Of a DNA stretch of 64,000 bases, positions 3,945-64,000 are shown piece by piece. This DNA comes from an uncultured Rickettsiales bacterium (GTDB lineage Bacteria > Pseudomonadota > Alphaproteobacteria > Rickettsiales > RGZB01), in assembly GCA_964467255.1 (NCBI GenBank), contig CAYXPR010000007.1, positions 320 through 64,319 on the forward strand, given 5' to 3'. The notes beneath the pieces were generated by a model that made no database searches, was not told the origin of the DNA, and saw nothing but the letters and a program-made list of their open reading frames with translations. The position numbers were made by a program, and so were the translations under genes. Position 1 is the stretch's first letter. The number at the start of each line of letters is the position of its first letter.

Positions 3945-4415
3945 ATGCCCTCCCTCACCCTTCATTTAAAGAATGCAGATGCCACCAAAAAGTTGGGAGC
4001 AGCCCTTGCAAACCGTGCGCGGTCTGGAGATGTGTTTTTGCTGGAGGGTAATCTTGGTAGCGGCAAAACAACCTTGGCGCAGGGCTTTATCCACTCACTT
4101 ATCGGACAGGATACAGAAGTCAGCAGCCCAACATTTAATCTGGTACACCAGTATGACGGCAACCTCTGCCCCATCTGGCACTTTGATTTATACCGTATCG
4201 AAAAAAAGCAGGACTTGCCAGAGCTGGGACTGGAAGACGCCTTGCAATCAGGCATATGCCTGATAGAGTGGCCGGAAATTGCCGCATCGCTGCTGCCGAA
4301 AGACACGCTGCACGTAAAACTTGCACCGGAGGCAGATGGCCGCACCGCAATTATTACACCGCAGGGCGCGTGGATACAAAGACTGGATAACGCATGGTTC
4401 AAAACACTGATATGA
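3945..4415 (+). CDS. tsaE: tRNA t6A37 biosynthesis ATPase TsaE
   Basis: 156 aa with P-loop GNLGSGKTTLAQGF and the HFDLYR motif typical of TsaE/YjeE. Confidence 0.9.
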   Translation: MPSLTLHLKNADATKKLGAALANRARSGDVFLLEGNLGSGKTTLAQGFIHSLIGQDTEVSSPTFNLVHQYDGNLCPIWHFDLYRIEKKQDLPELGLEDALQSGICLIEWPEIAASLLPKDTLHVKLAPEADGRTAIITPQGAWIQRLDNAWFKTLI

Positions 4416-5428
4416 CACGCGCAACAAGCAGCACTGAAAATCGTGATACGCTGATTGACGGTTTCCTTTCCAAAAATGGATTCAAGAACGCCGAGCGCCA
4501 AAAGCTGCCCAGTGATGCGTCATTCCGTCGTTATGAACGCATCGTCCATGCTGGAAAAACCTACATGCTGATGGATGCGCCGCCACCCAAAGAAGATGTG
4601 CGCCCCTTTATCCATATCGCCAAACACTTAAAGGCACATGGCTTTAGTGCCCCCACTATTGTAGCGGAAGACACTGCGCAGGGATTTCTGCTGCTGGAAG
4701 ACCTGGGAAACGAAAGTTACACCAAACTGCTGCAAGCGAGTGCAGATCTAGAAGAAACACTTTATCGCCATGCCATTGAGGCCTTGGTTGCGCTGCACGC
4801 ACTGCCTCTGCCCCAGCCGCTTGCCCCTTATAATGCTGAAAAGCTGCTGCAGGAAGTGATGCTGCTGCCGGAATGGCTACTGCCACTGATTGATAAAAGC
4901 AAGGCAACGCTGGAAGCTACAGAGAGCTATAAGGCCATCTGGCAACCGCTGATTCCAAAAATGCTGGCTGAAAAACCGATATTGGTGCTGCGCGATTACC
5001 ATGCAGATAACCTAATGTGGCTACCGGAGCGTCAGGGCAACAAAAAGGTTGGGATGCTGGATTTTCAGGATGCACTGGCAGGCCATACGGCTTATGACCT
5101 TGTTTCGCTGCTGGAAGATGCGCGGCGCGATGTGCCCCGCCCCCTCGCTGAAAAAATGATACAGCATTACCTTTCGCTGATGCCGAACACCGATGAAAAA
5201 TCTTTCCGCACCGCTTATGCCCTGCTGGGCGCACAACGGAATTGTAAAATCCTTGGTATCTTTGCACGCCTGTATGTGCGCGACGGCAAAGCGCATTATT
5301 TGAAATATCTGCCCCGTGTATGGGCGCATGTGGAACATGATTTACAGCACCCTGCACTGGTCGAACTAAAAGCGTGGCTTGAACGTTACTTCAGCCCAGA
5401 GGTGCGCCGCACCGCGCCGAAAGTATAG
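4412..5428 (+). CDS. amgK: Aminoglycoside-phosphotransferase-fold kinase, AmgK-like (anomeric MurNAc/GlcNAc kinase)
   Basis: APH-fold ORF (DYHADNLMW catalytic-loop motif, MLDFQDA). ATG 4412 overlaps the tsaE stop as ATGA; alternative start at 4394. It is paired with a MurU-like nucleotidyltransferase downstream. Confidence 0.6.
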   Translation: MTRATSSTENRDTLIDGFLSKNGFKNAERQKLPSDASFRRYERIVHAGKTYMLMDAPPPKEDVRPFIHIAKHLKAHGFSAPTIVAEDTAQGFLLLEDLGNESYTKLLQASADLEETLYRHAIEALVALHALPLPQPLAPYNAEKLLQEVMLLPEWLLPLIDKSKATLEATESYKAIWQPLIPKMLAEKPILVLRDYHADNLMWLPERQGNKKVGMLDFQDALAGHTAYDLVSLLEDARRDVPRPLAEKMIQHYLSLMPNTDEKSFRTAYALLGAQRNCKILGIFARLYVRDGKAHYLKYLPRVWAHVEHDLQHPALVELKAWLERYFSPEVRRTAPKV

Positions 5429-5433
5429 TCCCC

Positions 5434-6207
5434 ATGAATGCAAAAGCCGCGTATACGATGCCTAAATCTGCCATGGTATTTACCGCTGGCCTTGGCAAGC
5501 GCATGCAGCCCTTAACCGCGCATACACCCAAGCCGCTCATTCCGGTTATGGGCAAGCCAATGGTGGAATATATGTTCGATAAGCTGGCCACAGCGGGGGT
5601 AAAAAATGTGGTGGCAAACACGCACCACCTTGCCCCGCAGATGAGTGAATACTTACGGAGTTATCGCCGCCTTAATATTAAAATTACGCATGAACCGGTG
5701 CTGCTCGAGACGGGTGGTGGATTGGTGAATGCATTGCCCCTGCTCGGCAGCAACGACCCGTTTTTTGTGATTAATGGTGACATCATCTGCATGGATGGAG
5801 AGGCTGGCCCGTTTTTAAACCGCCTCGCCCGCCTGTGGCGCCCAAATATGGATGCATTGCTGCTGATGAAGCGCGTGGAAGACAAAGACTGCATCGGCTA
5901 TGACGGCAAAGGAGACTTTGACATCAGCTACCAACAACAGCTGATGAAGAAACCTGCCGACCACCATGCCCTTGTGTATACAGGTATTCAGATTTTCCAC
6001 CCCCGGTTGCTCGAAAAAATGGAAGCAGAGCCTTTCTCGATTAGCTGGATTTATTCCAAGTCCATCCAGAAGGATGGCACACTAAAGAACATCTACGGCG
6101 TGGTGCATGACGGCGCATGGCTGCATATCGGTACGCCAGAAGCGATTCCGCTGGCCGAAACCTTCCTGCAAAAAAACAACCGGCAGGATTCCTCCGCCGG
6201 TTGGTAA
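5434..6207 (+). CDS. murU: Sugar-1-phosphate nucleotidyltransferase, MurU-like
   Basis: 257 aa with N-terminal FTAGLGKRMQPLTAHTPKPL nucleotidyltransferase signature. It directly follows the AmgK-like kinase. Alternative start at 5458. Confidence 0.6.
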   Translation: MNAKAAYTMPKSAMVFTAGLGKRMQPLTAHTPKPLIPVMGKPMVEYMFDKLATAGVKNVVANTHHLAPQMSEYLRSYRRLNIKITHEPVLLETGGGLVNALPLLGSNDPFFVINGDIICMDGEAGPFLNRLARLWRPNMDALLLMKRVEDKDCIGYDGKGDFDISYQQQLMKKPADHHALVYTGIQIFHPRLLEKMEAEPFSISWIYSKSIQKDGTLKNIYGVVHDGAWLHIGTPEAIPLAETFLQKNNRQDSSAGW

Positions 6208-6228: not shown

Positions 6229-9200
6229 TTAGGGGCCTACTGGCTCTTTAAGCGGCGTACAACCCGTCGGATAGTCAATCGGCGGAGTCGCATTTGGGTC
6301 AGGAATCGGGTTTGGCACTGTCCACGTCGATATTAACTGGCCAAGTACGTTGTATGACGTACCACATTCATCGCGCAGACCGACACGGGGACCACAGTTG
6401 TTACCACAGCGATTATACTCAGCCTGAGCTTGTGATGTTGCTGTCGTGTGATCCGAGCCAGAGTTTCTAGCTTCAGTATACTTTGTATTCGCAAACTGCT
6501 GGCAGTTCACACACCCTGCATCAAATGTACATTCCGCTGGCGGAGAGGTTGCGGGCTCGGCGCAACAACCACCCCCTACAGAATAGTTTGGCGGATCTGA
6601 TGCTGCTCTGCAGCCAACCCATGTGCTGTTCGCCTGACTTGCACAGGTACCTTGATTGCCATAATCAATAAAGTCGCCCATGTCCCTGATACAGTTATAG
6701 TACACGTTGTTTGATTTTTCTTGGCATGTGCAGCCACCACCGCCGGAACTACCGCCGGAGCCGCCACCAGAACCACCGCCAGAGCCACCACCGGAACCGC
6801 CGCCAGAGCCACCACCGGAACCACCGCCAGAGCCACCACCGGAACCACCGCCAGAGCCACCACCAGAGCCACCACCGGAGCCGCCGCCAGAACCACCGCC
6901 AGAACCGCCACCAGAGCCACCACCCGAACCACCGCCAGAACCGCCACCCGAACCACCGCCGGAGCCGCCACCAGAACCACCGCCGGAGCCGCCACCAGAA
7001 CCACCGCCGGAGCCGCCACCGGAACCAGAACCAAAACCAGATGAGGAACCGCTACTTGGGTCTGGCGGCAAGTTCATTGCAGATGCTGCGGGAAGCAGAT
7101 TGCTGGCGGTTGTGCCAGGTATACGTTCATTACCACCACGCAATGCTTCCGGCGGCTCGCACATACCGGCTGCTGTTTTTAAGAACGTCATAACATCGTC
7201 AAAACGATACGTACCAATATTCATTGTTTCGATCGGATTGGCCGCCGTGTCTTTTGTAATTGGCTGAGGCGGTTTGCACGCGTAGGTAATATGGCCAGCA
7301 GCAGAACCTGCACCAGGGGCTGGAAGGAGGTTTAGGTAATTGCGGTAATACACACCGTCAATCTGCACGATTTTATTTTTGTGCTGGTCGGAATTATTGC
7401 TATCCAAACTTGGACGATAAACCTTTATGCGGCGCCAGTTTTTCTCCGAACAAACGCGTGCATCAGGGTCGCGGCAGTCTGGGTATGAACCGCCTTCGTG
7501 GATCGTACGTTTAGTAACCCTGTTCCACCTATCCGTATTGCCGCAAATGTCCTGGTTCTTGCCCCAGTTCGATTCACTGACTCGAACAAACTTCTCGCCT
7601 TTTTGGAATTTGCATGGCTCGTTAGGATCGTAGCCATTAAAGTCGTCCCCCGGGTCATTCGGAACAAAATTTCTTATCGTGCCGTAGGCGTAATAGCAAT
7701 CGGTTCCAGGCGGAACAGGCGATTGGTTACATGCAGGTTTTACCCATTTTTCGGGCTGCTTGGCATCCATCTTCAGGTTTTCGAACTGCGTGGTGCTCGT
7801 TGCCCTGTTGCGGGAATATGTCAGACTGTAAGGATTGCCAGGGTTATATCTTTCAAAGCCCACGCCCTCAACATATGCCATGTGTCTGCGGTAACGACCA
7901 TCCTTTGGTGAACCATCTGCGTTGCAACGTTCTTTACGCTCCTGCTCAGACATTGAGGGATTATCACACGCGTCTTGATGCGGCGTACCATCCCCATAGG
8001 TGGTGCCCGCTTGCAGAGCTTCGGTGATTGTTTCGTCCCATATCAGTAAGTCGCCTTTTTGCGCGCAGTCAAGGCCGCCAAATTTGCCCTGAATCGTGTA
8101 GTTCTGACCGGGTCTAAGCGTTCCGACTTCGTCATAATACTTACCAAATTCTATCGTGTTATTTGGTGCATAATATTCCCATAGGCGCGCTTTGACGTTA
8201 CCAGCATAGTTGATGCCGTCATTGGCAAAGTCGGGGCCCGCAAAACCACGCCACACAATCGGCCAAGGCAGCATGTCATAAATTGGCCTACCATCTCGGC
8301 CTGTTTTTACGGTGTTAAAGAACATGCCCCCACGAAGCATCGCATACCCTGTGGCGCTGCCGACCTTAAAGTTTTTGTTATAGTCGCAAATACAATTCAG
8401 GCCAAATTTGCGCATACAGCGCGCTTGGTAGAGCATCATTTCATACCAACCGCCAATCGCGCAACCACGAGGGCCAACAATGTTTTCTTTTTGACGTGCG
8501 GTGATAGCACTGTCCGAAGAAAACACGGTGCCGTCATAATTCGCACCCGTTACGGAGCGAGCAATAATCCCATAGGCTGTGTCGTAAACCTGAGCTGGCA
8601 CAGGGTTGTTAACAAATGTACCGTCCGCCAACCTTCTGGGTGTCGGCAATGGTACGTTTGGTGACATAAATGGTGCTTCCGTCCACTCATAGTGCATGTC
8701 ATAACGCTTGCCAGCTGGCGGTAATGGCAAATAGGCCAATAATTGAGGTTCCTCAAACATCCAGCGGAGATTATATTTTTTATCCAGACCTAATACCGGA
8801 CTTTCCAGTGCCAATTCATTCGGTGGAATAGTATGGCTAACGTCACGTTCGGAAATGGGGCACGCAAGGTCTCGTGCATTCCAGAAACATTTACGCCATG
8901 ACTCATAGTGCAGTTTGATATCCTTCTGTTTGCAATCCTCATATTCATCCATACCTTGGGTGCAAATATTGTCCTCGTAGCAACGGCAATAGAAGTTATA
9001 GCCTGTGCACACAAGGAAGGTTTGCGCAAAAATATAGTCAAAGCGCTCCATCCTGAAATTCAGAATGTCGATGTTTTTGTGAACGCGTTGCAGGTGGTCT
9101 TTCCACAGGTTGCAGCGTTCGTCGTAACAAAAGAATTGGGCAACGTCGCGGCCTGCCCACGGTGCACTTAAATCATTGGGGTAATCTACCGCAGGACGTG

Positions 9201-10896
9201 GGCTATATGGATGACAGATTTCGCGGATACGTTCGACTGTTTTAAGGTTGGTCGGGCCAAATGGATACCGCGCTTCACTCTCTGTTGGAGGCGTTGAGTC
9301 TTGTGGCACCCACGGCGCAAGGGTCGTTGAGTTTGCACTCTTAAAGAGCGGTACTTCAAAATCCAACGGGTTAATGTTAGACGGTGTGAATTGCGCAAAC
9401 CACGTGCCTGCATCATATGCGTCATTAAATACTTGCCCTGGATCGACAGGAACATCCGGCGGCTTATAGAAGCTTGTGGGTATCTTGGTCGCCTTTGAAG
9501 GAGTTCCCGGGCCATTATTATCCATCACCCAGTGACCATTTATGTTTTCCGGAACGTCTTCCTGGCAGAAACGGAGATAGTTATCGCAACCTTCCATATC
9601 TGGTCCACCGCAGTGCCTTGGACCGCCACTGCCGCCACCCTGTCCACAACGACTAACAGGCGAACCGTCGGTAAATTTACTGACCGTGCAACGCTGCATC
9701 TGAGGTTTACAATTTGGGTTCGCCTTGCATGGCGGAGGTTGAATCATGCGCCAATATGGCATTGGTGGATAATAGGGGAAGTAGTTCCCCTGCGCGTATT
9801 TTCGGTCATATGGTGCAGGCGTTCCATTTGCTGGGGCGCCAACACTAGGAGGATAACTACTCACGCAGCCTCTCATACCAAAATACATAGCATTGGTGGG
9901 GCGTGGGGCGTCCTCGTTTTCCGCATATTGAAACTTTAAATCTGGCGGGCGGGTTGGCGGCGGATTTAACAGCCGGTTCATGCATACTTTTTTCTCAACA
10001 TCAATAAAGCCCATTGTGTAGAAATTGATGGCATCCATCAGCTCACTCCGCATCGGCGTGCGCTGAATCAACTGACAGTCATTATAAGAAAGGTGTGTCG
10101 GCATATCCGGCATGGTGATTTGGCCGCAATCGCCGAGGAATGCCGCCTCCGATATATAAAGCTCTATACAGACTTTACGTTTATATTTTTGACCTGGTTG
10201 GCTAATAACATCTTGCAGGTGGCTTGGGTTGCCAACTGGGTCAAAGTTCTCTCTTAAGTACCAATTGGGGTTTTCCTTATCCGCCAGCGGCATATAGTGG
10301 TCGCTAGGGTTGATTAGCTTTACAATCTTACGCCCTTGCGGATCAGGAGGGCCACCGGGGGTTTCCGGCGTAGTGTCATTGTTGCGATACTCTCCGCCAG
10401 GCCTCAAAAAATATTTGCAAAATTCATCAACGTCGTCGATGTAGTCGTCCTTCGCGCAAGACTTTTTACCTGATTCCGTCAATTGCCCTGATACAAAGCT
10501 GTACCCTGCAGAACAGCTTGGATCAACGCGCAGAATCTGATCGTCCGGTATGCGCTTAAATTCGTACTCATCCTCACTTGGGTCACGCTTTTTGGTAAAA
10601 CGATATTCAGGGCGATAACAGCCCGTGATGTTTGGCCAATATTGCTCTAAGCCACCCTCGTAGAGCGGGCCTGAATATGATTTATCAAGACACTCCTGCT
10701 TGGTATCACCTTTTAAGTAAATGCATGGGTTAAGAAAATTAGAGTTTGCCGGCGGGGTGATACGATTCGGGATTTGGCACTGCGGTTCAGGGATATTTGC
10801 ATTGGCCGCATGGGGCTCTTTCGGCAACAAAACGAGCATAAGGGAAAGGGCTAATCCCCCCACTAATGCAGGTATCAGATGGCGTTTTTGTCGCAT
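6229..10896 (-). CDS. Giant secreted cysteine-rich protein of unknown family (1555 aa)
   Basis: One uninterrupted ORF. N-terminal signal peptide (MRQKRHLIPALVGGLALSLMLVLLPKEPHAANA) and no further TM segments. About 58 Cys by manual count; rich in P/Y/W/N/D/G. A 108-aa Gly/Ser tract is followed by a 167-aa C-terminal module with 14 Cys. I recognise no family. Confidence 0.85.
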   Translation of the reverse strand: MRQKRHLIPALVGGLALSLMLVLLPKEPHAANANIPEPQCQIPNRITPPANSNFLNPCIYLKGDTKQECLDKSYSGPLYEGGLEQYWPNITGCYRPEYRFTKKRDPSEDEYEFKRIPDDQILRVDPSCSAGYSFVSGQLTESGKKSCAKDDYIDDVDEFCKYFLRPGGEYRNNDTTPETPGGPPDPQGRKIVKLINPSDHYMPLADKENPNWYLRENFDPVGNPSHLQDVISQPGQKYKRKVCIELYISEAAFLGDCGQITMPDMPTHLSYNDCQLIQRTPMRSELMDAINFYTMGFIDVEKKVCMNRLLNPPPTRPPDLKFQYAENEDAPRPTNAMYFGMRGCVSSYPPSVGAPANGTPAPYDRKYAQGNYFPYYPPMPYWRMIQPPPCKANPNCKPQMQRCTVSKFTDGSPVSRCGQGGGSGGPRHCGGPDMEGCDNYLRFCQEDVPENINGHWVMDNNGPGTPSKATKIPTSFYKPPDVPVDPGQVFNDAYDAGTWFAQFTPSNINPLDFEVPLFKSANSTTLAPWVPQDSTPPTESEARYPFGPTNLKTVERIREICHPYSPRPAVDYPNDLSAPWAGRDVAQFFCYDERCNLWKDHLQRVHKNIDILNFRMERFDYIFAQTFLVCTGYNFYCRCYEDNICTQGMDEYEDCKQKDIKLHYESWRKCFWNARDLACPISERDVSHTIPPNELALESPVLGLDKKYNLRWMFEEPQLLAYLPLPPAGKRYDMHYEWTEAPFMSPNVPLPTPRRLADGTFVNNPVPAQVYDTAYGIIARSVTGANYDGTVFSSDSAITARQKENIVGPRGCAIGGWYEMMLYQARCMRKFGLNCICDYNKNFKVGSATGYAMLRGGMFFNTVKTGRDGRPIYDMLPWPIVWRGFAGPDFANDGINYAGNVKARLWEYYAPNNTIEFGKYYDEVGTLRPGQNYTIQGKFGGLDCAQKGDLLIWDETITEALQAGTTYGDGTPHQDACDNPSMSEQERKERCNADGSPKDGRYRRHMAYVEGVGFERYNPGNPYSLTYSRNRATSTTQFENLKMDAKQPEKWVKPACNQSPVPPGTDCYYAYGTIRNFVPNDPGDDFNGYDPNEPCKFQKGEKFVRVSESNWGKNQDICGNTDRWNRVTKRTIHEGGSYPDCRDPDARVCSEKNWRRIKVYRPSLDSNNSDQHKNKIVQIDGVYYRNYLNLLPAPGAGSAAGHITYACKPPQPITKDTAANPIETMNIGTYRFDDVMTFLKTAAGMCEPPEALRGGNERIPGTTASNLLPAASAMNLPPDPSSGSSSGFGSGSGGGSGGGSGGGSGGGSGGGSGGGSGGGSGGGSGGGSGGGSGGGSGGGSGGGSGGGSGGGSGGGSGGGSGGGSGGGSGGGSGGGSGGGSGGSSGGGGCTCQEKSNNVYYNCIRDMGDFIDYGNQGTCASQANSTWVGCRAASDPPNYSVGGGCCAEPATSPPAECTFDAGCVNCQQFANTKYTEARNSGSDHTTATSQAQAEYNRCGNNCGPRVGLRDECGTSYNVLGQLISTWTVPNPIPDPNATPPIDYPTGCTPLKEPVGP
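6733..7056 (-). repeat. In-frame tandem repeat encoding (GGGS)x22 within a 108-aa Gly/Ser tract
   Basis: 12-nt periodicity, core about 6758..7021. The unit count of 22 comes from ORF-length arithmetic in two frames. Units vary synonymously (Ser TCC/TCT/TCG, Gly GGT/GGC) while the peptide is perfect. Confidence 0.95.
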
Positions 10897-11083
10897 AAAA
10901 ATCGTATTACCGCATTACTTATGTGCCAATTAACATACTCATATTGAAGATATATTTCTACTTTAATATTGGCTTTTAAATTGTTTCAGATACAATATTC
11001 CACTGTATAGGGACCAAGTGTATCAAAAAATAGTTAAAATTTTACTAAATATTGTCATTTTTTAACTCCCATCTGAAGGCAAC

Positions 11084-11839
11084 ATGGCCAATAAATCTGT
11101 GGAAAATAGTAGTCCAATCAGCATCTACGAAGAAATAACCGCGCAAATTAAAACCGGTGAGTATTTCAAGGACGCGCTTGATTGGTATACCATCAAGTTT
11201 ATTCAGCCCGTTACCCACCGCTCGTTTTTTATTCTAGTCACCATTGTTTCGGTTATCACATCTATATCATCTCTGATGATACTGAACTCCATATTACCCG
11301 TGGTTCAGGTTTTACCCATCGTCATGCCGAACAAAGCAATGGCCGATTACCGTTTTGAGCTCCGCCAAATCGGACAAAAAGAAGAAAATCCAAATGTATC
11401 CGTGATAAAATACCTCAGTGGTAAGTATATCCAGATTCGCGAGGACTATAGTTTCTCACAGCTTCCTATCGACTTGGAATATATTAAGAAGTTTTCAACA
11501 GAGCAGGAATACGAGCGATATGTCGCCTTTATGAAGCCTGACAGAGTCGACAGCATGATTTTGAAGTATCGCAACCATACCAAGCGTGTAATTGAAATAA
11601 AAGAAGTGGTAGTTTTGCCACGCACAGCTGATTCGCGGCTACCGCCCAACCAACACCGGATTGCCGCTTACTTTCTGGCAAAGGAAAAGGGGCCAACCGC
11701 CAATCCTGACGCCTTATGGAAAGCAAGCCTTGATGTACGCTTCAGTGATGTAGTATTTTACAAGGACACTCAGAAGTTTGCACCAATGGATTTTGTGGTG
11801 ACCCGTTACGAAGCGCAGCAAGTGGAAGCAAAAAAATGA
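11084..11839 (+). CDS. virB8: VirB8-like (TrbF/DotI-like) bitopic type IV secretion component
   Basis: 251 aa with a short cytoplasmic N-terminus, one TM (FFILVTIVSVITSISSLMIL), then a periplasmic domain. VirB8-like landmarks: DWY..K, YIQIREDYSF, and C-terminal FAPMDFVVTRYEA resembling NPLGFxVxxY. Visibly AT-richer than its neighbours. Confidence 0.6.
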   Translation: MANKSVENSSPISIYEEITAQIKTGEYFKDALDWYTIKFIQPVTHRSFFILVTIVSVITSISSLMILNSILPVVQVLPIVMPNKAMADYRFELRQIGQKEENPNVSVIKYLSGKYIQIREDYSFSQLPIDLEYIKKFSTEQEYERYVAFMKPDRVDSMILKYRNHTKRVIEIKEVVVLPRTADSRLPPNQHRIAAYFLAKEKGPTANPDALWKASLDVRFSDVVFYKDTQKFAPMDFVVTRYEAQQVEAKK

Positions 11840-12630
11840 AAAAACACATATTTACGTATGCTTTAATGGCAAGCCTTGCAGTGGGCGCCTATGCTCCACA
11901 GGTACTGGCGCTTCAGGAAAACAAGCCTATTGCAGTAGATAAGCGTATTCGTACTTTCGTGTATGACCCAAATGAGGTGTACAAATTCGTTGGGCATTAT
12001 CGTTATCAATCAAGCCTCGAATTTTCACCGGATGAGGAAATTGCCACCGTTTCGATGGGCGATTCCCTTGCTTGGCAAGTAACCCCTCAGGGAAACCGCA
12101 TGTTTCTTAAGCCAATTGAGCCAGATGCCACCACGAATATGACGGTTGTAACCAGTAAGCGTATCTACCATTTTGAACTTTACGGCGAAGAAGCGGAGGG
12201 CATACGCGATGATGAGATGGTGTTTGCCGCCCGATTTCATTATCCCGATTCAGGCGACGCCGACCTCAAGCGGTTCTCGATAAATAAGGATATGCCTGAC
12301 ATTGAGGAAGAAGCCGAAAAATATAACTTCAATTACTCGGTTTCCGGCTCGGAGTTTATTACGCCGCTTAAAGTGTTTGACGACGGTGAATTCACCTATT
12401 TCGAGTTTAAGGACAAGAACGCTGAAATTCCAGCATTTTTTGTGGTTCACTCCGATAAAAAAGAAGCTGTTATCAACTACCGTATGACCGGAAATTATGT
12501 GGTGGTAGAGCGTGTTTCCAGCGTATTTACGCTGCGCCACGGCCCCGACATCGCCTGCGTGTTTAACGAGACGATGCCGCTACCGAAGGAAAAGCCAAAG
12601 CCGAAACGCAAGTTCCTGAACTGGTTCTAG
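11836..12630 (+). CDS. virB9: VirB9-like (TrbG/CagX family) type IV secretion outer-membrane core component
   Basis: 264 aa with a signal peptide. The N-domain pattern is DKRIRTFVYDPNEVY...GDSLAWQV...NRMFLKP...TNMTVVTSKRIYHFEL. The C-domain pattern is PLKVFDDGEFTYFEF...PAFFVV...VINYRMTGNYVVVERV. ATGA overlap with the VirB8-like gene. Confidence 0.75.
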   Translation: MKKHIFTYALMASLAVGAYAPQVLALQENKPIAVDKRIRTFVYDPNEVYKFVGHYRYQSSLEFSPDEEIATVSMGDSLAWQVTPQGNRMFLKPIEPDATTNMTVVTSKRIYHFELYGEEAEGIRDDEMVFAARFHYPDSGDADLKRFSINKDMPDIEEEAEKYNFNYSVSGSEFITPLKVFDDGEFTYFEFKDKNAEIPAFFVVHSDKKEAVINYRMTGNYVVVERVSSVFTLRHGPDIACVFNETMPLPKEKPKPKRKFLNWF

Positions 12631-27135: not shown

Positions 27136-27858
27136 CTATTTTTTTAGAAACCATGATTTCGGCTGGAAACGGTATTTCACTAAACACCAGAGCGCTTCAA
27201 GCCCGTGCCACAGGCGGATTTTTTTTCCCTCCTCTGTGGTGCGGCTGTTATAGCGGATAGGTAATTCAATAAAGCGTGCGCCCATGCGGCTAAGCTTAAC
27301 GGTAATTTCAGGGCAAAAACCAAAGCCTTCTTCTCGCAGCTCTACTTTCTGCAAAATTTCGGTGCGCAGCATTTTGTAACATGTTGCTTCGTCATGCAGC
27401 GGCCAGCCGGTTAGTACCCTTGCGACAAAAGTAAGTGCTTTATTACCAAAGCGGTGAATAAAACCATTAAAGCTACTCCCCTCGAAGAAACGGTTGCCAT
27501 ACACAGCATCCGCCTCGTCTTTCAGCAACGGCGCCAGTAATGCAGCATAATCTTTGGGGTCGTATTCAAGATCCGCATCCTGAATGATTACAGCCTTGCC
27601 TTTTACTTGACCAAGCCCAGAACGTATGGCAGCGCCCTTCCCGCGGTTTGCGGGATGAGCCACTACTTCCACCCGAGCATCACACGCCTTCCATGCCAGC
27701 GCTTTTTCCTTTGTTGTATCGGCGGAACCATCATCCACCACTATGAGCTGGATTACTTCCGGCTGAGCAAGCACCTGCCCGATAATCGTATCAATATACG
27801 ATGCCTCGTTATAGGCAGGCATTACCACCGACAGGCATGCTGATTTATTGGGGTTCAT
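27136..27858 (-). CDS. Family-2 glycosyltransferase (polyprenyl-phosphate sugar synthase-like, ArnC/GtrB/DPM1-like)
   Basis: 240 aa with SVVMPAYNE...VVDDGSADTT...QDADLEYDP (DxD) GT-A signature. Confidence 0.85.
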   Translation of the reverse strand: MNPNKSACLSVVMPAYNEASYIDTIIGQVLAQPEVIQLIVVDDGSADTTKEKALAWKACDARVEVVAHPANRGKGAAIRSGLGQVKGKAVIIQDADLEYDPKDYAALLAPLLKDEADAVYGNRFFEGSSFNGFIHRFGNKALTFVARVLTGWPLHDEATCYKMLRTEILQKVELREEGFGFCPEITVKLSRMGARFIELPIRYNSRTTEEGKKIRLWHGLEALWCLVKYRFQPKSWFLKK

Positions 27859-29734
27859 CTGAATCCGTATCTGGTTTATCGGCCCATCTTACAGCAAGAA
27901 GCTTATAAGGTGAAACCTCATCTGCTAACCCCTCTGGCTTGCCAAGTGCCAGAAAAATAACCTGTATGCCATACTGGTAATTTTCATTCATGGGCGCTTT
28001 AAACCGTATGCGCCTGCCACCCGGAATGTCTTCCTCGCTGATGCGCTCAAGCATTTCGCGCTGCACTTTGGCCCGCACCCAATGCCAATCGCTGTAAGGA
28101 ACTTTTACATTATTGTTTATGGCTAGGTCTACTTCCACAAACTCAATGTTTTCTGCAAATAATACAACCAGTGGCTTGGTTAAACCATTCTGACGGTTCC
28201 AGCCCACACCGTTAAAGCGAATATTTTGCATCGGCGCAAGGAATGGGTCTCCACGACGTGTGCTTTTTTGATCGCTTGTATATTCTGTTGGCAAAGTGAG
28301 AGAGGCCTGTTTTTTGCGATGCTGCATGGGATCCACTATCGTGTCGGGCCATGTTTCCCAACCGCGGCCAATAGTGCCGATACACCACACAACAAGAATT
28401 AACCCTCCGGCATAACGCAACCATTCATTTTTCAGTTTGCTGCCTGCAAAAATGATAAGCCCCGCAATCGTGGCGGCAAACACAGGAGCAAAGTCAGCAT
28501 AATACCGCGACGAAACGATAGGGTAACGTAAGTAAAAAATGACGAAGAGCGTGAATGGAATAACGCCCCACAGTGTTATGATTCCGGGAATGGTTAGTTC
28601 TAATGTTTTATTTTGGCAGAATGTCTTATAGCTTTTTTGTAACTCGCTAAAGCCCGCAGAAATACAAGCCAGGAATAACATAAGGTAAAAAATGCTATAC
28701 GTATGAAAATACAGTTCGCGCCAGCGAATCGTTTCTGACTGAAGTGGCATAAAATTGGGCGAAAAAAATTCAAAATCCGGCGTTTCCGGCTTTGTGACAA
28801 GGAACATCCCGCCGAATAATTCTTTCGCCGCACTTAGTAGCGGCTCATGTTGATAAGGATAATCAAAACGTGTGGAATACATGGCGCCGTAAGAGGGGTG
28901 TAAATTAATGGCGTGACCAAACTCAAGGGGGTGATCGAACCGCACCCAGTTTGTCCACAGCACGAGCATTATGCCAATTAGAGCAGGCATGGCTGCAACC
29001 ATAGATCGTGCTGCGGTTTTAAGCATAGGCTGATTTTTTGTTTTCTGGCCTAACTGCGTGGCGCCACCAACAAGAACAACAGCAATGGCATAAAATAAAA
29101 ACGTGGGACGAATCAAAACACCAAGCCCCGCCAGAAGACACAACGCACTATAAAACCGGCGTGACGGTTTGCGGTACAACGCGATTAAGCCAGAGAGCAA
29201 ACCCGTTGCATATATATATTGGTAGATAACGGCTTCTTCATAAATATCGAGCCGCGTGCGCAAGAGCGTCACGAATATGGGCAAACATAAAATACTAAGC
29301 GCTGCCAGAAGCCATACCCAGAAATTTTCCTCGCCCTTTTTGAGCCGTCCCTCCACGATGAATATCATTCGGGAGTGGCCTAGAAACACACGCAAAACAA
29401 CATAGGCCCAGAGCATAAGGGCAGCCAGCAACGGAATGCGGTCAGGCAACACATCAAGGCCAAACGCTTTAGCCAAAATGGTAAAGGGCAAGCGCCAAAG
29501 CGGTATGCCAAGCCCCCAGACCTGCTGAACGCCACCACCGCTCCATGTCATATCCATATCAAGATATGCCGGATCTTCTGAAATTAAAAACCGCCCATCT
29601 AAAAATGCATCCACCTGGTGACGGTAATGCAAATTCTGCGATTCTAAGCTCTCAAAAATTGGGCCAGTAATCCACCCGAGCAATAGAATGAAAGCAATGC
29701 TGCTTATGATTATGATTTTGTTCGAAATTTGCAT
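27845..29734 (-). CDS. Polytopic membrane protein, putative GT-C-fold glycosyltransferase (ArnT/PMT-like architecture)
   Basis: 629 aa with about 12 predicted TM helices. The first periplasmic loop is acidic (EDPAYLDMD) and there is a about 165-aa soluble C-terminal domain. 14-nt overlap with the GT2 gene. The assignment rests on architecture only. Confidence 0.45.
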   Translation of the reverse strand: MQISNKIIIISSIAFILLLGWITGPIFESLESQNLHYRHQVDAFLDGRFLISEDPAYLDMDMTWSGGGVQQVWGLGIPLWRLPFTILAKAFGLDVLPDRIPLLAALMLWAYVVLRVFLGHSRMIFIVEGRLKKGEENFWVWLLAALSILCLPIFVTLLRTRLDIYEEAVIYQYIYATGLLSGLIALYRKPSRRFYSALCLLAGLGVLIRPTFLFYAIAVVLVGGATQLGQKTKNQPMLKTAARSMVAAMPALIGIMLVLWTNWVRFDHPLEFGHAINLHPSYGAMYSTRFDYPYQHEPLLSAAKELFGGMFLVTKPETPDFEFFSPNFMPLQSETIRWRELYFHTYSIFYLMLFLACISAGFSELQKSYKTFCQNKTLELTIPGIITLWGVIPFTLFVIFYLRYPIVSSRYYADFAPVFAATIAGLIIFAGSKLKNEWLRYAGGLILVVWCIGTIGRGWETWPDTIVDPMQHRKKQASLTLPTEYTSDQKSTRRGDPFLAPMQNIRFNGVGWNRQNGLTKPLVVLFAENIEFVEVDLAINNNVKVPYSDWHWVRAKVQREMLERISEEDIPGGRRIRFKAPMNENYQYGIQVIFLALGKPEGLADEVSPYKLLAVRWADKPDTDSDEPQ

Positions 29735-31117: not shown

Positions 31118-31541
31118 TATCTGACTTGCGGTCTTGCAGGAATTTGTTGATGCCCACTTCGTCGAGCATCAATCCTTCGCGGCGGTCAAGTTCGGCTTGC
31201 TCTTCGCGCTCTTTACGTTCTTTCATGATTTCGTATTTTTTCTGTTCGGCGAATTCGGCGCGGATGCGCTCTTCCTGAAAGCGGATTTTCTGCTCTGCAT
31301 CCGTAAGGATTCCTTTTAACCTTTCGCGGGTTTGGAGAGAGCGCTTGAGGTAGTTGGTGTAGGTAAACTGCCCTTCTTCTGACTCGCTTGCCAGCTTTTG
31401 TTCCGCCTGCATTTCTTTTTCAAGATTGGTAAGATGTTTGACCGTTTGATCGCGCGCATCGAGCAAAATCGCCAGCTCTTTACGCATATCATCCAAGCGA
31501 CGCTTGTGGATTTTTATGAGTGTGCTAAGCGACTTTGTCAT
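31107..31541 (-). CDS. fliJ: Flagellar export chaperone FliJ
   Basis: 144-aa coiled-coil protein overlapping the fliI stop by 4 nt. The call rests on position and size. Confidence 0.7.
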
Positions 31542-32893
31542 TTCTTAGGCTGCTGCACAGGTTGTGCGGGCTTCATGTTTAAAATCTTGCCAAGCTGCTG
31601 GTAGCCGAGCTCCAGATTCGAGGCTTCCTCCGGCTGCTGGCGCAGGAAATCTTCCAACTTGTCGTGGTAATAAATGGCAGCATCCACTTCTGGATCGCTG
31701 CCCTTACGGTAGGCGCCGAGGCGAATCAGCTCTGACATGTCATTATAAGTAGCCATCAGCTGGCGTGCTTTTACGACCATTTGGTTTTCTTCCGGCGTGT
31801 TACAGGCTGGCATAGTACGCGACACGCTACGCAATATATTCACCGCCGGAAAGCGCCCGCGCTCTGCAATCAGCCTGTCGAGCACGATGTGACCATCTAG
31901 AATACCGCGCACAGCGTCTGAAATCGGTTCGTTATGGTCGTCACCTTCCACTAGCACGCTGAACAGGCCGGTGATAGAGCCTTTGCCAGTGCCCGGCCCA
32001 GCGCGCTCTAGCAACTTTGGTAGTTCTACAAATACGGTAGGAGTATAACCCTTTGTTGCAGGAGGCTCGCCTGCGGAAAGACCAATCTCGCGCTGCGCCA
32101 TAGCAAAGCGCGTGACACTATCCATCAGGCAGAGTACTTCCTGCCCTTGGTCACGGAAAAATTCTGCAATCGCCATCGTGAGATAGGCAGCCTGCTTGCG
32201 CACCAGCGCGGATTCGTTCGAGGTTGCCACCACCACCACCGCTTTTTCGAGGCCTTCTGCACCCAGATATTCATGAATGAATTCGTGCACTTCGCGGCCA
32301 CGTTCACCAATCAACCCGATGACCTTTACGTCAGCCGTGCAATATTTCGTGAGCATGGAAATCAGCATGGATTTACCCACGCCGGAGCCCGCAAAAATGC
32401 CCATACGTTGCCCACGACAGCAGGTGAGGAAAGTATTCACGGCGCGCACGCCTAAATCCATCTTGCCGCGCACCGGCAAACGTTTATGCGCCGGAGGCGG
32501 GTTGGCGCGGAACGGGTAGGCCACCTCGCCCATCTGGAGCGCGCCTTTTTCGTCAATCGGTTCGGCAAATGCGTTAAGGATTCGGCCCTTCCACGCCGCA
32601 TGCGGAAATGCTACCGCCTCGTTTTTCTCAATAATCACGCGGCAACCGCTGCCAATGCCTTCTACATCGGTAAACGGCATCATCATGGCAATGCCTGCGC
32701 GCAAGCCCACCACTTCCACGCCGACTTCGCGGCCATTTGTGGTGACAATTCGGCAGCGCGAACCAATGCTGACCATTCCTTCCAACCCCGCGCACTCAAT
32801 TAACAGACCTTGTACGGCAGTCACTTTGCCGTAGACTTCGCGGTCGTTAATTTCTTTAAGTTTGCGGATACTGATGTCGATTGGATCTGCCAC
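31538..32893 (-). CDS. fliI: Flagellum-specific ATPase FliI
   Basis: 451 aa with Walker A GSGVGKS, Walker B VLCLMDS and F1-beta-like fold. GTG start. Confidence 0.93.
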
Positions 32894-61583: not shown

Positions 61584-64000
61584 TTAATAAACAATCTGGC
61601 AGGACTCTTTTAGATCGACCACCATGCGGCAGAAATTCTCCGCATCGGGCTGTGGAATCGTGCGGGTACTAATGCGATACACGCCTGTTTCTTGTGTCTT
61701 CTCAATGACGAGATTGGACTTATTCAGCAGCACGCCATATTTACTGGCATAGAAGCGCTCTTTACTGGCCAGCGCATCACCATAATTCGTGAACCCGCCA
61801 AACACGGCGCGGGCACCACCGGATGGATTTGCCCTTAATGGCACATCAGGAACCGCTGTTGTGGCAGCTGGAGGTGTAACAACAGTAGGCGGGAGCGGAT
61901 TGGGAAGAACGGGTGCGTCATCACCCTCACCCATTGAAATCACCATATCGCCCGCTGCGGGCATGTTGGGCGAAGGTGTGGTGCCATCTTCCCGCAGGAA
62001 AATGTCGCGCGTGGCGAATGACTCACTGTTATTAGTAATATCTACCGCAACGGCATTTTCCTGAACAAGGCTCATCTTCTTTAAATCCGCGGCTGAAACA
62101 CGAAGACTATATTTTCCGGGTAGCACTTTTTCAAAAATAAAGAACCCATCAAACTCTGACGAAACCGATTTGACCACCTGCCCTTGAGCATCCACCAACT
62201 CAACCAGAACACTTGAGAGTGTGGATTCAAAATTCTGTCCATCCTGTACCGTGCGGGCATATACGGTGCCATCAATATCGCTTGTCATTGCCAATAAGAA
62301 ATCAACTTCGGTGATGCTGCCAGGGCGGCCGACAACGGAATAACCATCTTCATAAGGCATCCACAACGGGTCTGGCAGAGACGCTTTGTTTAATTCAACA
62401 GCGGTGGGTTGGTATGTCGGCACGCCCGTTACAAATGCCGTATCCCCTTTATCGAACATGTAAGTGCGCGACCCCACTTTATACGTGAGTGCTTCATCCA
62501 CCAGCGTGTCGGTTTTATCGATCTGCTTGTTCTGGTTATTATCCACAAATGTTCGGGCGCTAACCGCCCCGAGCGATGCAATATTTTTGCTACTCGTATA
62601 CAGAGTATTATCCATTGGGTCACGCGCCAGAGAAAACCCAAGGCGCGCAAAAACCTGCGTTTCCCCTTGGTCATCTACCTCACCTTCAAGACTCACTTTA
62701 TAATCTGTTAAATCCCAGATAAGGCTATTCCTGATGCGCGTGGAATTATCCTGAAAGCCTTTTTCAATGTCGATTTTATCAGTCAGCTTTTGAGTCAGGT
62801 TGCGCTGGAAAGAAACGCTGAAGCGTTCTAAATCCTGCACAGGGCGAATGGTATAATCTAACACCGTGCGGATAATCCACTGCCATGCGCTGCCCCTAAG
62901 CGAAAGGCTGCCAAAATAATTGTCCGTGCTGTCTTGAATGCTGGCCGCAATGCGGTTGCTGATACCAATGCCGCCTACTGCCGTGCTAAGGCGATTTTCC
63001 AGCGTTTGGCGTTCACCGGATTCCAATGACTCATTCTTCAGATTAAAGCTGATATTGGCGTAGGGAACAATAAACGCGGGCACAGATGTACCAACATCCA
63101 GCTCCGTAATGCTGCTGGGCAGCGGCGTAAGTCTATCGTTTTCTTCACTGGAAAATTCATCGGAATAGAAACGCTGTTCGAGCTTTAAGCTGATGTCATC
63201 AAAACCCGTAACCAAGGTTGTTTTTGTTCCCCATTCCCCCTCTTCATCGCCCGCCACATCCATGCTCACAATCGTGCCAAGCACCGAGGTGCGTAAGCCG
63301 GAAGAGGCCAAATTCCTTACACCGCCAATGAGTGGTGTGGAGGCAAAACCCAGAATGCCCGTGACGGAATCCGTAATACCATATTGTGCCTGCGCTACAT
63401 ATCGCATGTCTTCTGAGTGTCGAACGGGGTCGTCATCTGTTCCGAGGAATGACTTCGATTTTTCGTCGACCGAGATTGAATAGTTCACGATGCCTTTTTT
63501 CAGGAGCTCGTCGCCAATGTTATACTGGCGGACTTCTTCACGGATTTGACCCTGTGGCCCATAAAAAACAAGGCGAAAAATGTTATTCCCGTATAAGAGC
63601 GGAATATTTAGAAATTCATAACGGCCATCCGTTGCCACTTGTTGCAAATCCAGCAGCACATCGTTGCGGTACAGTTCTACGTCCCACGATACAGTGCTAT
63701 CCCCCACGATGTTAATGCGGTCAAACACCACGCCTTCACGCAGGGCCGCATTTGAAACCATCGCACCACGCCCCAAGCTGGTGGCAGCGATAAGCGGAAT
63801 AGAAACAGAATTGATATCGCCAAAATTAAAGTCTGTGGCATCCAGCGGCCCTAACAAACCACCATCGATATCCTTACGGCCCAAGTTTAACCTTGCGGAA
63901 TCGATGCTTTCATCGCTTGTGCCTGAAATGAACGCCTGCGTGCTGAGATAACCTAAGTCACCGCCACCTGCCATTGAATATTCACTGACAAAGTTGCTCT
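61584..64000 (-). CDS. Large usher-like beta-rich envelope protein with Pro-rich linker and C-terminal SPOR-like domain (5' end probably outside the window)
   Basis: The frame stays open upstream of ATG 63974 to the window edge. Plug-like segment DVELYRNDVLLDLQQVATDGRYEFLNIPLLYGNNIFRLVFYGPQGQ. CarboxypepD_reg-like DGFFIFEKVLPGKYSLRV. SPOR-like tail ARAVFGGFTNYGDALA...GVYRISTR. Confidence 0.5.
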   Translation of the reverse strand, partial: SNFVSEYSMAGGGDLGYLSTQAFISGTSDESIDSARLNLGRKDIDGGLLGPLDATDFNFGDINSVSIPLIAATSLGRGAMVSNAALREGVVFDRINIVGDSTVSWDVELYRNDVLLDLQQVATDGRYEFLNIPLLYGNNIFRLVFYGPQGQIREEVRQYNIGDELLKKGIVNYSISVDEKSKSFLGTDDDPVRHSEDMRYVAQAQYGITDSVTGILGFASTPLIGGVRNLASSGLRTSVLGTIVSMDVAGDEEGEWGTKTTLVTGFDDISLKLEQRFYSDEFSSEENDRLTPLPSSITELDVGTSVPAFIVPYANISFNLKNESLESGERQTLENRLSTAVGGIGISNRIAASIQDSTDNYFGSLSLRGSAWQWIIRTVLDYTIRPVQDLERFSVSFQRNLTQKLTDKIDIEKGFQDNSTRIRNSLIWDLTDYKVSLEGEVDDQGETQVFARLGFSLARDPMDNTLYTSSKNIASLGAVSARTFVDNNQNKQIDKTDTLVDEALTYKVGSRTYMFDKGDTAFVTGVPTYQPTAVELNKASLPDPLWMPYEDGYSVVGRPGSITEVDFLLAMTSDIDGTVYARTVQDGQNFESTLSSVLVELVDAQGQVVKSVSSEFDGFFIFEKVLPGKYSLRVSAADLKKMSLVQENAVAVDITNNSESFATRDIFLREDGTTPSPNMPAAGDMVISMGEGDDAPVLPNPLPPTVVTPPAATTAVPDVPLRANPSGGARAVFGGFTNYGDALASKERFYASKYGVLLNKSNLVIEKTQETGVYRISTRTIPQPDAENFCRMVVDLKESCQIVY

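Follow-up and report, generated by a model that had tools for sequence, protein, structure and literature searches.

A 64,000-nucleotide stretch from the assembly of an uncultured Rickettsiales bacterium (contig CAYXPR010000007.1; this whole stretch is called the window below) carries a gene for a giant protein of 1555 amino acids (aa), located beside a virB8-virB9 gene pair. [quoted passage not shown] The reading draws on a remote similarity of one conserved block (block C) to CHAP domains, on the domains fused to this block in distant homologues, on a recurrent gene neighbourhood, and on the joint divergence of the giant gene and virB8.

The giant protein and its candidate CHAP domain

An earlier note on this stretch, made from the letters, described a single uninterrupted open reading frame (ORF) with a Sec signal peptide and no other transmembrane segment, and the sequence bears this out. 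The ORF starts with ATG and holds 1555 codons of protein. Its Kyte-Doolittle mean exceeds 1.4 (19-residue window) solely at aa 5-28, signal-peptide cleavage is predicted between MRQKRHLIPALVGGLALSLMLVLLPKEPHA and AN, and neither a lipobox nor a second transmembrane segment was found in the sequence or in the hydropathy scan. N-terminal signal-like segments are also seen in homologues with complete N-termini from other loci. The cysteines, put at about 58 by manual count, number exactly 58, and the composition that had been called rich in Pro, Asn, Asp and Gly is G 12.2%, P 9.3%, N 6.4% and D 6.2%, with Y at 5.3% and C at 3.7%. The parts of the gene are listed here in window coordinates (HMM, hidden Markov model).

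6229..10896, minus strand: giant ORF, 1555 aa, predicted to be Sec-exported, 58 Cys (ORF list and sequence; intact in locus L002)
10807..10896, minus strand: predicted signal peptide, aa 1-30, with the hydrophobic segment at aa 5-28 (hydropathy scan)
9997..10638, minus strand: conserved block A, aa 87-300, near group only (local HMM matches in 27/157 proteins)
8797..9279, minus strand: conserved block B, aa 540-700, motif VERIREICHPYSPR ... NIDILNFRMERFD (local HMM matches)
7402..8514, minus strand: block C, aa 795-1165, CHAP-like papain-fold candidate with three lineage-specific insertions (alignments, profiles, model)
8461-8463, 7882-7884, 7573-7575 and 7567-7569, minus strand: putative catalytic residues C812, H1005, E1108 and N1110 of block C
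7060..7401, minus strand: conserved region after block C, aa 1166-1279, motifs TYACKPP ... GMCEPPEALRGG (alignment with L001, L002, L003 and P0002)
6733..7059, minus strand: Gly/Ser tether, aa 1280-1388, varying in length and sequence among relatives (imperfect tandem repeats)
6232..6732, minus strand: C-terminal module, 167 aa, 14 Cys (seen only in the window and L002, plus a weak, repeated form in P0001)

It is quite probable that block C is a divergent CHAP-like domain. Its Rickettsiales-type members share the invariant motifs GPRGCxIGGWYEMMLYQARC ... LNCxCDY ... PLxxRG ... GD ... DxxYxRHxA ... ExNWGKxxDxCGNTDxW, and these run from a Cys followed by a helix through a GD strand and a His strand to an E-x-N strand, just as in CHAP and NlpC/P60 enzymes. 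The Pfam CHAP model (PF05257) matches 4 of 14 family members below threshold at model positions 38-81, the GD..H..E.N segment, the best of these matches having an E-value of 5.3e-4 and 20.9 bits where the cut-off is 26. When a family profile of 145 sequences was compared by hhalign with a CHAP profile built from eight staphylococcal phage lysins, the probability was 88% (E 2.9e-6); shallower family profiles gave 55-59% (59% with 19 sequences). The comparison pairs H1005 of the window protein with the CHAP His, and E1108-S-N1110-W with E-Q-N-W.

For the structure, AlphaFold2 gave no usable model of block C from the window protein, for which the alignment held 3 sequences (predicted local distance difference test, pLDDT, 36.8). 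As a proxy we used aa 1138-1384 of the compact homologue P0012, which is 52% identical to the window block C (alignment A7), with a 19-sequence alignment. This model has a pLDDT of 68.6 and a predicted template modelling score of 0.66, and its N-terminal part with the Cys and the helix is poorly defined. A Foldseek search of the PDB gave a single high-probability match, the CHAP domain of the phi812 hub (9eum, E 0.025, probability 0.94), and the top three matches in BFVD were staphylococcal TmpD (0.99), a 'CHAP domain protein' (0.84) and a lactococcal endolysin (0.82).

The pattern of residues points the same way. All 14 Rickettsiales-type sequences have C812, H1005, E1108 and N1110, and the full C-H-E/D-N/D set is kept in the window protein and in 32/34 near-group proteins. 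Among the 145 family domains, 66 have the His at the H1005 position, and the other candidate residues tend to go with it: C812 is present in 62/66 of the His-bearing domains against 43/79 of those without His (Fisher 6e-8), E/D1108 in 64/66 against 48/79 and N1110 in 60/66 against 46/79, all uncorrected for phylogeny. C835, C1141 and C1149 are invariant with or without the His, and C1118 nearly so; presumably these four are structural disulfide cysteines, judging from this pattern. C835, which sits in LNCxCDY much as a Cys sits in QCxDY of CHAP domains, was considered as the nucleophile and rejected, since it is invariant regardless of the His, which suggests a structural disulfide. Taken together, the support for a CHAP relationship is modest but convergent: sub-threshold Pfam matches, hhalign, Foldseek and the residue pattern agree, and each is modest. 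Block C would most likely cleave peptidoglycan.

Outside block C, blocks A and B are collinear in all loci by local HMM matches, and the consensus of the distant group holds a block-B-like motif, ERIxDPxHPFSPR. The C-terminal part is as it had been described, a Gly/Ser tether followed by a module in which 14 of the cysteines fall within aa 1389-1555, with CTC at 1389-1391, CC at 1444-1445 and CxxC at 1462-1465. The tether is of the (GGGS)n type, pure G/S at aa 1289-1388 and G/S-rich from about aa 1280, and its DNA consists of imperfect 24/48/84-bp tandem repeats (6736-7039), the sole tandem repeat found in the giant gene. Its counterpart in L002 is a longer (GGSS)n stretch, and in L003 a (GS)n tail without the Cys module. 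Judging from these alignments, tether and module form a lineage-specific variable appendage outside the conserved core. A sequence search gave no PDB relative of the module, and the antibody structures that matched it there are probably chance matches.

The usual repeats of giant proteins are absent, as had been claimed. Pfam gives 0 families at E<=1, so that RTX, Ig-like/cadherin, haemagglutinin, YadA and autotransporter domains are all missing at this level, and NCBIfam gives no match of any kind. PDB sequence searches with profiles A1 and A7, with the C-terminal module and with aa 31-789 returned nothing meaningful. The statement that the protein has 'no recognisable family' is thus right for routine searches, but not in view of the remote CHAP relationship and of at least 233 clusters of homologues.

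Relatives and their domain company

Relatives of the giant protein were found at 12 loci in species-representative genomes, all of them from Rickettsiales or unclassified alphaproteobacterial metagenome-assembled genomes. The proteins are 1400 to >3300 aa long and keep blocks A, B and C collinear, with variable insertions between them. The closest locus is L002, from a Lake Mendota Rickettsiales metagenome-assembled genome, where the giant protein has 80% aa identity and the ORF, whose integrity in a close relative had been named as a check, is intact. Word-index homology searches were of little use, yielding 1 match each for the whole protein and for alignment A1 and 17 with a cleaner alignment; we suspect that the lists of candidates were flooded by low-complexity stretches (G/S and S/N). 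An exhaustive profile search of 1.84 billion representatives, with the profile of aa 505-1271 as the query, found 233 clusters (50% identity) at E<=1e-3 and 150 at E<=1e-10. Blocks A, B and C occur together in about 30 clusters, and the remaining clusters share block C, frequently as the very C-terminal part of proteins 900-2700 aa long. Most family members stop 65-230 aa past block C, and a few have other long Cys-rich tails, of up to 830 aa with 84 Cys. Among the homologues looked up, no source gave an informative name, and those with a name are called 'hypothetical protein'.

Because the ORF is intact in L002 with a ratio of nonsynonymous to synonymous divergence (dN/dS) of 0.045 and has 233 homologous clusters, the giant gene is a real and selected gene. 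By the same sequence comparisons it belongs to an undescribed protein family of Rickettsiales-like bacteria, and this would define a new family of at least 233 clusters for which neither Pfam nor NCBIfam has a model.

The company that block C keeps in distant homologues is that of cell wall enzymes and T4SS parts. In 43 distant homologues that were scanned, Peptidase_M23 domains were found in 6, SLT domains in 3, NlpC/P60 in 1 and TrbC/VirB2 in 1. The SLT, M23 and NlpC/P60 domains are always N-terminal to block C: P0057 has an SLT domain and three M23 domains before it, P0113 an M23 and an SLT domain, and P0058 an NlpC/P60 and two M23 domains. Pfam (E<=1) finds no SLT, M23, NlpC/P60 or TrbC/VirB2 domain in the window protein. 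A TrbC/VirB2 pilin domain is fused N-terminally in two separate clusters, P0038 (with its cluster mate P0153) and P0045, with a match of 42 bits against the Pfam cut-off of 27.9.

Some further observations concern the loci of the relatives. The sub-family with the largest proteins has a conserved ORF, about 420-450 aa long and without a Pfam family, directly 3' of the giant gene on the same strand (L008:13303-14556, L012:13513-14787, L013:10063-11412, L010:2374-4827 and L007:9159-10437). Possibly the two genes are partners in that sub-family; the window has no counterpart. At L009:5939-19314 (1779+1158+1508 aa), L014:6280-14718 (1235+695+863 aa) and L032:4765-14256 (402+1639+1103 aa) the giant gene is broken up into two or three consecutive large ORFs or has them beside it, and these could reflect faulty assembly, a genuine split or additional genes specific to the family. 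A LOG-like gene (Lysine_decarbox/LDcluster4) lies downstream of the giant gene at L001:7435-8481, where it is adjacent, and at L014:17514-18587, where it follows the 863-aa ORF and mutS; the two loci otherwise differ. Ankyrin-repeat genes near homologous loci of the distant group (L015:3449-4381 and L016:16153-17172) are consistent with host-associated, Rickettsiales-like genomes.

Co-divergence with virB8 and the gene neighbourhood

The neighbours of the giant gene are those that had been reported, murU on one side and virB8-virB9 on the other, the latter across a divergent AT-rich region. The features outside the gene are as follows.

3945-4415, plus strand: tsaE (Pfam)
4394-5428, plus strand: APH-type kinase, amgK-like (Pfam)
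5434-6207, plus strand: NTP_transferase, murU-like (Pfam)
6177..6203, minus strand: terminator-like GC-rich hairpin with T-run, just past the giant stop codon and over the last murU codons (consensus scan)
6300..11800, no strand: divergence valley against L002 (giant gene, intergenic region and virB8), 67-83% nucleotide identity against 85-98% in the flanks
10897..11083, no strand: divergent intergenic region between the giant gene and virB8, 187 bp, 27% GC against 51% in the window
11084..11839, plus strand: VirB8 paralogue, 251 aa (Pfam VirB8, weak, E 6.7e-7)
11836..12630, plus strand: full-length VirB9/CagX, 264 aa, whose only Cys is close to the C-terminus (Pfam CagX, E 1.9e-63)

Across 21 kb of alignment the window and L002 share 86% nucleotide identity, interrupted by the valley listed above. 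In the flanks the synonymous divergence (dS) is 0.39-0.78 (ahcY, histidine kinase, tsaE, amgK, murU, virB9 and ilvB; 0.78 for murU and 0.50 for virB9), whereas in the valley it is saturated, with 2.9 in the giant gene and no defined value in virB8, whose protein has 75% aa identity. The giant gene is under purifying selection, with dN/dS at the low value given above overall and at 0.06-0.09 in sub-regions with estimable dS. Synonymous saturation cannot stem from relaxed constraint on the protein, and therefore the coalescence of the valley is older than that of its flanks, either through recombinational replacement or through long-maintained alleles. The valley behaves as one unit, with virB8 included and virB9 excluded, and of all the evidence here this co-divergence argues most strongly for a joint function of the giant protein and the adjacent VirB8.

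Saturated dS and an allele-like haplotype shared with virB8 are also what one would expect of exposed molecules under diversifying or frequency-dependent selection. The giant protein might accordingly be an adhesin of the pilus tip or surface, or a 'warhead' of the rvh system standing in for VirB5, which binds and possibly breaches bacterial or protist targets, with the CHAP-like domain as a binding or regulatory module or as a lysin acting in trans. The VirB2 pilin fusions would fit such a role, as would the variable Cys-rich appendages at the C-terminus with their flexible tether of 100 aa, the lack of VirB5 in rvh systems (PMC2653234, PMC11077975) and the proposal that basal Rickettsiales kill bacteria via rvh (PMC9352585). 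We consider it rather unlikely: dN/dS stays low in every part of the gene (0.045-0.09) and gives no hint of positive selection at this resolution, nothing points to a route across the outer membrane (no beta-barrel, known C-terminal signal or Pfam adhesin domain), similarity to VirB5 is lacking, and the pilin fusions occur in 2 clusters only.

Linkage to virB8-virB9 recurs among the relatives. When the genome loci were pooled with the contigs of individual homologues, 19 loci had usable context. In 12 of them virB8-virB9 lies divergently beside the giant gene, with one intervening ORF, co-directional with the giant gene, in L029 and L032; in L018 the pair is two genes away, so that linkage is seen in 13/19 loci. 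The pairing persists in L029 and L030, where the outer flanks differ. In the window virB8 and virB9 overlap by 4 bp and are followed by ilvB, ilvH and ilvC, and ilvB frequently flanks virB9 at homologous loci as well. The VirB8 of the window has NPDA at about aa 206-209, approximately where VirB8 proteins carry NPxG.

On the other side, tsaE, amgK and murU (3945..6207, plus strand), preceded on the same strand by ahcY and a PAS histidine kinase, converge on the giant gene and end 21 bp from its stop codon. The three genes lie tail-to-tail with the giant gene, or one ORF off, in 9 loci, among them the virB-less L016/17 and L027, a neighbourhood that also fits the peptidoglycan context of the proposed T4SS accessory. 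It is thus conceivable that the giant protein is a housekeeping enzyme of peptidoglycan remodelling or turnover that feeds the AmgK-MurU salvage of N-acetylmuramic acid, and that the adjacency of virB8-virB9 is inherited gene order. Distant orthologues are indeed multi-hydrolase proteins (SLT, M23 or NlpC/P60), and the functionally unrelated ilvB is kept nearby too, which indicates that synteny inertia operates here. Such a role is unlikely nonetheless. The convergent orientation argues against co-transcription with murU, tsaE-amgK-murU is a conserved block by itself, and the giant gene diverges together with virB8 and not with murU, whose dS is like that of the flanks. The VirB2 fusions and the persistence of the virB8-virB9 pairing across changed outer flanks speak against it, and hydrolases of that kind are rarely so large or so variable.

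Relatives with as little as about 25-30% identity still have the gene between virB8-virB9 and murU-amgK-tsaE, and the GC content of the giant gene (50.9%) equals that of the window (51.1%). The suggestion in the earlier note that the gene is an insertion is therefore unsupported as a recent event, and recent horizontal insertion was rejected. This conserved chromosomal position, with a vertical-looking distribution, is also unlike that of mobile toxin cassettes, and bears on the possibility that the protein is a freely released toxin or lysin directed at bacteria or at a host, which leaves the cell by other means than a T4SS (e.g. a type II system or vesicles). A Sec signal on a disulfide-rich protein is typical of extracellular proteins, CHAP-like domains occur in lysins, and the variable C-terminal module could target the protein. 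Still, no adjacent immunity gene was recognised, and the co-divergence with virB8 and the pilin fusions would be left unexplained, which makes a free toxin very unlikely.

The small or unknown ORFs flanking the homologues have no Pfam matches, and nothing among them was recognisable as a hidden VirB2, VirB7 or immunity gene. Promoter-like hexamers in the intergenic region 10897..11083 are no commoner than in shuffled sequence, and the terminator scan overall shows no enrichment over shuffled sequence; the hairpin at 6177-6203 may be a shared or bidirectional terminator. Elsewhere the window carries fliI (a FliI/type III secretion-type ATPase gene at 31538-32893, minus strand), glmU, lptD, a leuC-type aconitase-family gene, aroA and ilvBHC. 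Judged by this gene content, the host appears to be a flagellated, biosynthetically rich, free-living-like Rickettsiales lineage and not a reduced endosymbiont. Two large ORFs without a Pfam family at E<=1e-5 lie among the housekeeping genes, at 27845-29734 (minus strand, 629 aa) and at 61584-63974 (minus strand, 796 aa).

A proposed role in type IV secretion and its known parallels

Of the functions considered in the earlier note (surface adhesin, toxin, lytic factor, or partner of the VirB8/9-like module), the lytic factor and the VirB8/9 partner are favoured by the CHAP-like domain, the adjacency in 13/19 loci, the VirB2/SLT/M23 fusions and the co-divergence. In the proposed T4SS accessory role, the protein would be exported by Sec and then fold oxidatively in the periplasm; the signal peptide and the 58 cysteines are observed, and the folding pathway is inferred. 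By analogy with VirB1, PrgK and TraG it would dock on the VirB8 paralogue encoded next to it, which diverges together with it, and on VirB9. VirB1 is reported to interact with VirB8, VirB9 and VirB11 (cited in PMC2653234), with the binding of VirB8 and VirB9 seen in Brucella, and PrgK binds the VirB8-like PrgL and TraG binds TraM (PMC11323569). Once docked, the protein may cut the stem peptides of peptidoglycan locally. The wall in question could be the cell's own, giving passage to the rvh channel or pilus, or that of a target cell if the giant protein sits on the pilus, a location suggested by the VirB2 fusions. The tether and Cys-rich module, as a variable appendage, may bind a surface or a ligand.

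Several points weigh against this reading. Every CHAP signal is below standard significance, and the window protein itself has no Pfam CHAP match at E<=1. The hhalign match spans 38 columns only, covering the His and Glu/Asn strands, and the region of the catalytic Cys gives no credible alignment to the CHAP Cys even with hhalign at low mact. C812 (GPRGC-IGGWYEMMLYQ) does precede a predicted helix, but the helix region has a pLDDT <50 in the homologue model, and the template modelling scores of the Foldseek matches are low (0.22-0.31). The His is lost in 79/145 family domains, and therefore block C is non-catalytic in many relatives; the CHAP domain of PrgK, for its part, had no hydrolytic activity in vitro (PMC11323569). 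More than 1100 aa of the giant protein, blocks A and B included, have no assigned role, and at 170 kDa the protein is far above the size of VirB1. As to the neighbourhood, virB8-virB9 is absent beside the giant gene in L004, L005, L014, L016/17, L028 and L031 (in L028 a VirB2 domain is fused to the giant-family protein and virB8-virB9 is not adjacent), and where the pair is adjacent this could partly be inherited gene order, with ilvB and murU also kept nearby.

It is worth considering the arrangement in Rickettsia, where virB9a-virB8a is divergent from virB7-virB8b-virB9b-virB10-virB11-virD4 (PMC2653234). In the window the giant gene lies on the divergent side of virB8-virB9, in the place of that operon, and the window VirB9 (264 aa, one Cys near the C-terminus) resembles Rickettsia VirB9a and not the truncated VirB9b. 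The rvh system is known for its puzzles, namely a duplicated VirB8 and VirB9, a missing VirB5, and an ancestral function that was possibly bacterial killing rather than host manipulation (PMC2653234, PMC9352585, PMC11077975). Free-living-like Rickettsiales have been proposed to kill bacteria via rvh, on the thin evidence of proteins with peptidoglycan-binding domains (PMC9352585, PMC11077975). We found no literature that links Rickettsiales secretion systems to CHAP domains or to AmgK/MurU. A fast-evolving, conserved giant gene beside virB8-virB9 would give these puzzles a concrete object. It would also extend CHAP-type secretion hydrolases, so far from Gram-positive conjugation systems, into Gram-negatives. 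A more far-reaching version, which we regard as doubtful, has the giant protein as a wall-breaching enzyme or adhesin at the tip of the VirB2 pilus or channel, delivered from the periplasm and docked by a dedicated, co-evolving VirB8/VirB9 pair. If true, it would explain the duplicated virB8/virB9 and the absence of VirB5 in Rickettsiales, and the ancestral 'bacteria-killing' rvh would gain a locus-encoded weapon whose alleles are exchanged together with virB8. The pertussis toxin/Ptl system, with its delivery from the periplasm to the outside, is a model for such a display at the tip.

Among known systems, staphylococcal phages have lysins and tail hubs (phi11 endolysin, the phi812 hub 9eum, LysK type) whose CHAP domains share with block C the GD..(G/R)H(V/I)A.V and V.E.NW strands with their His and Glu-x-Asn pattern, and these domains are the best structural matches to the model of the block C homologue. 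An inserted subdomain stretches the interval from Cys to His: CHAP has about 60 aa there, compact homologues about 130 aa and the window protein about 190 aa. Unlike CHAP, block C has an extra subdomain with the four near-invariant cysteines, and unlike the CHAP domains of lysins its Cys helix fails to align.

VirB5/TraC, a helical bundle of about 220 aa, has no counterpart here by Pfam or NCBIfam, and the giant protein is seven-fold larger. T4SS effectors of the XVIPCD type are cytoplasmic substrates with a C-terminal XVIPCD signal and paired immunity proteins. The giant protein differs from them in having a Sec signal and no recognised immunity gene. Peptidoglycan-directed T4SS effectors nevertheless resemble it in combining T4SS linkage with wall-directed domains, and they are relevant to the proposal of ancestral bacterial killing by rvh.

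VirB1 (Agrobacterium, Brucella; RvhB1 in Rickettsia), the specialised lytic transglycosylase of P-type T4SSs, is a Sec-exported periplasmic factor that opens the wall and interacts with VirB8 and VirB9 (cited in PMC2653234). It is among the fastest-evolving Vir components in Rickettsia (PMC2653234), and the giant gene is likewise fast. VirB1 has about 250-290 aa and the glycosidase fold of SLT, whereas the giant protein lacks SLT and has putative cysteine-peptidase chemistry; it would be at most a functional analogue of VirB1, not a homologue.

The nearest parallels are the Gram-positive T4SS hydrolases PrgK of pCF10 (LytM-SLT-CHAP) and TraG of pIP501 (SLT-CHAP), in which, as here, a T4SS-linked extracytoplasmic protein has a C-terminal CHAP-type domain. 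The layout of PrgK (PMC11323569), SLT and M23 followed by a terminal CHAP-type domain, is that of some distant homologues, while the window protein has block C alone without the SLT/LytM (M23) combination. PrgK and TraG bind the VirB8-like proteins PrgL and TraM (PMC11323569); here the virB8 gene is adjacent and co-diverging. The differences are that the host is a Gram-negative, Rickettsiales-like bacterium, that the protein has a predicted cleavable signal peptide and not an N-terminal membrane anchor, that it has 1555 aa, 58 Cys and two further conserved blocks, and that its similarity to CHAP is remote and sub-threshold. Wall hydrolases associated with T4SS are thus already known, and what is new is a giant, Sec-exported, Cys-rich, CHAP-like one that is paired with a VirB8 paralogue in a Gram-negative lineage.

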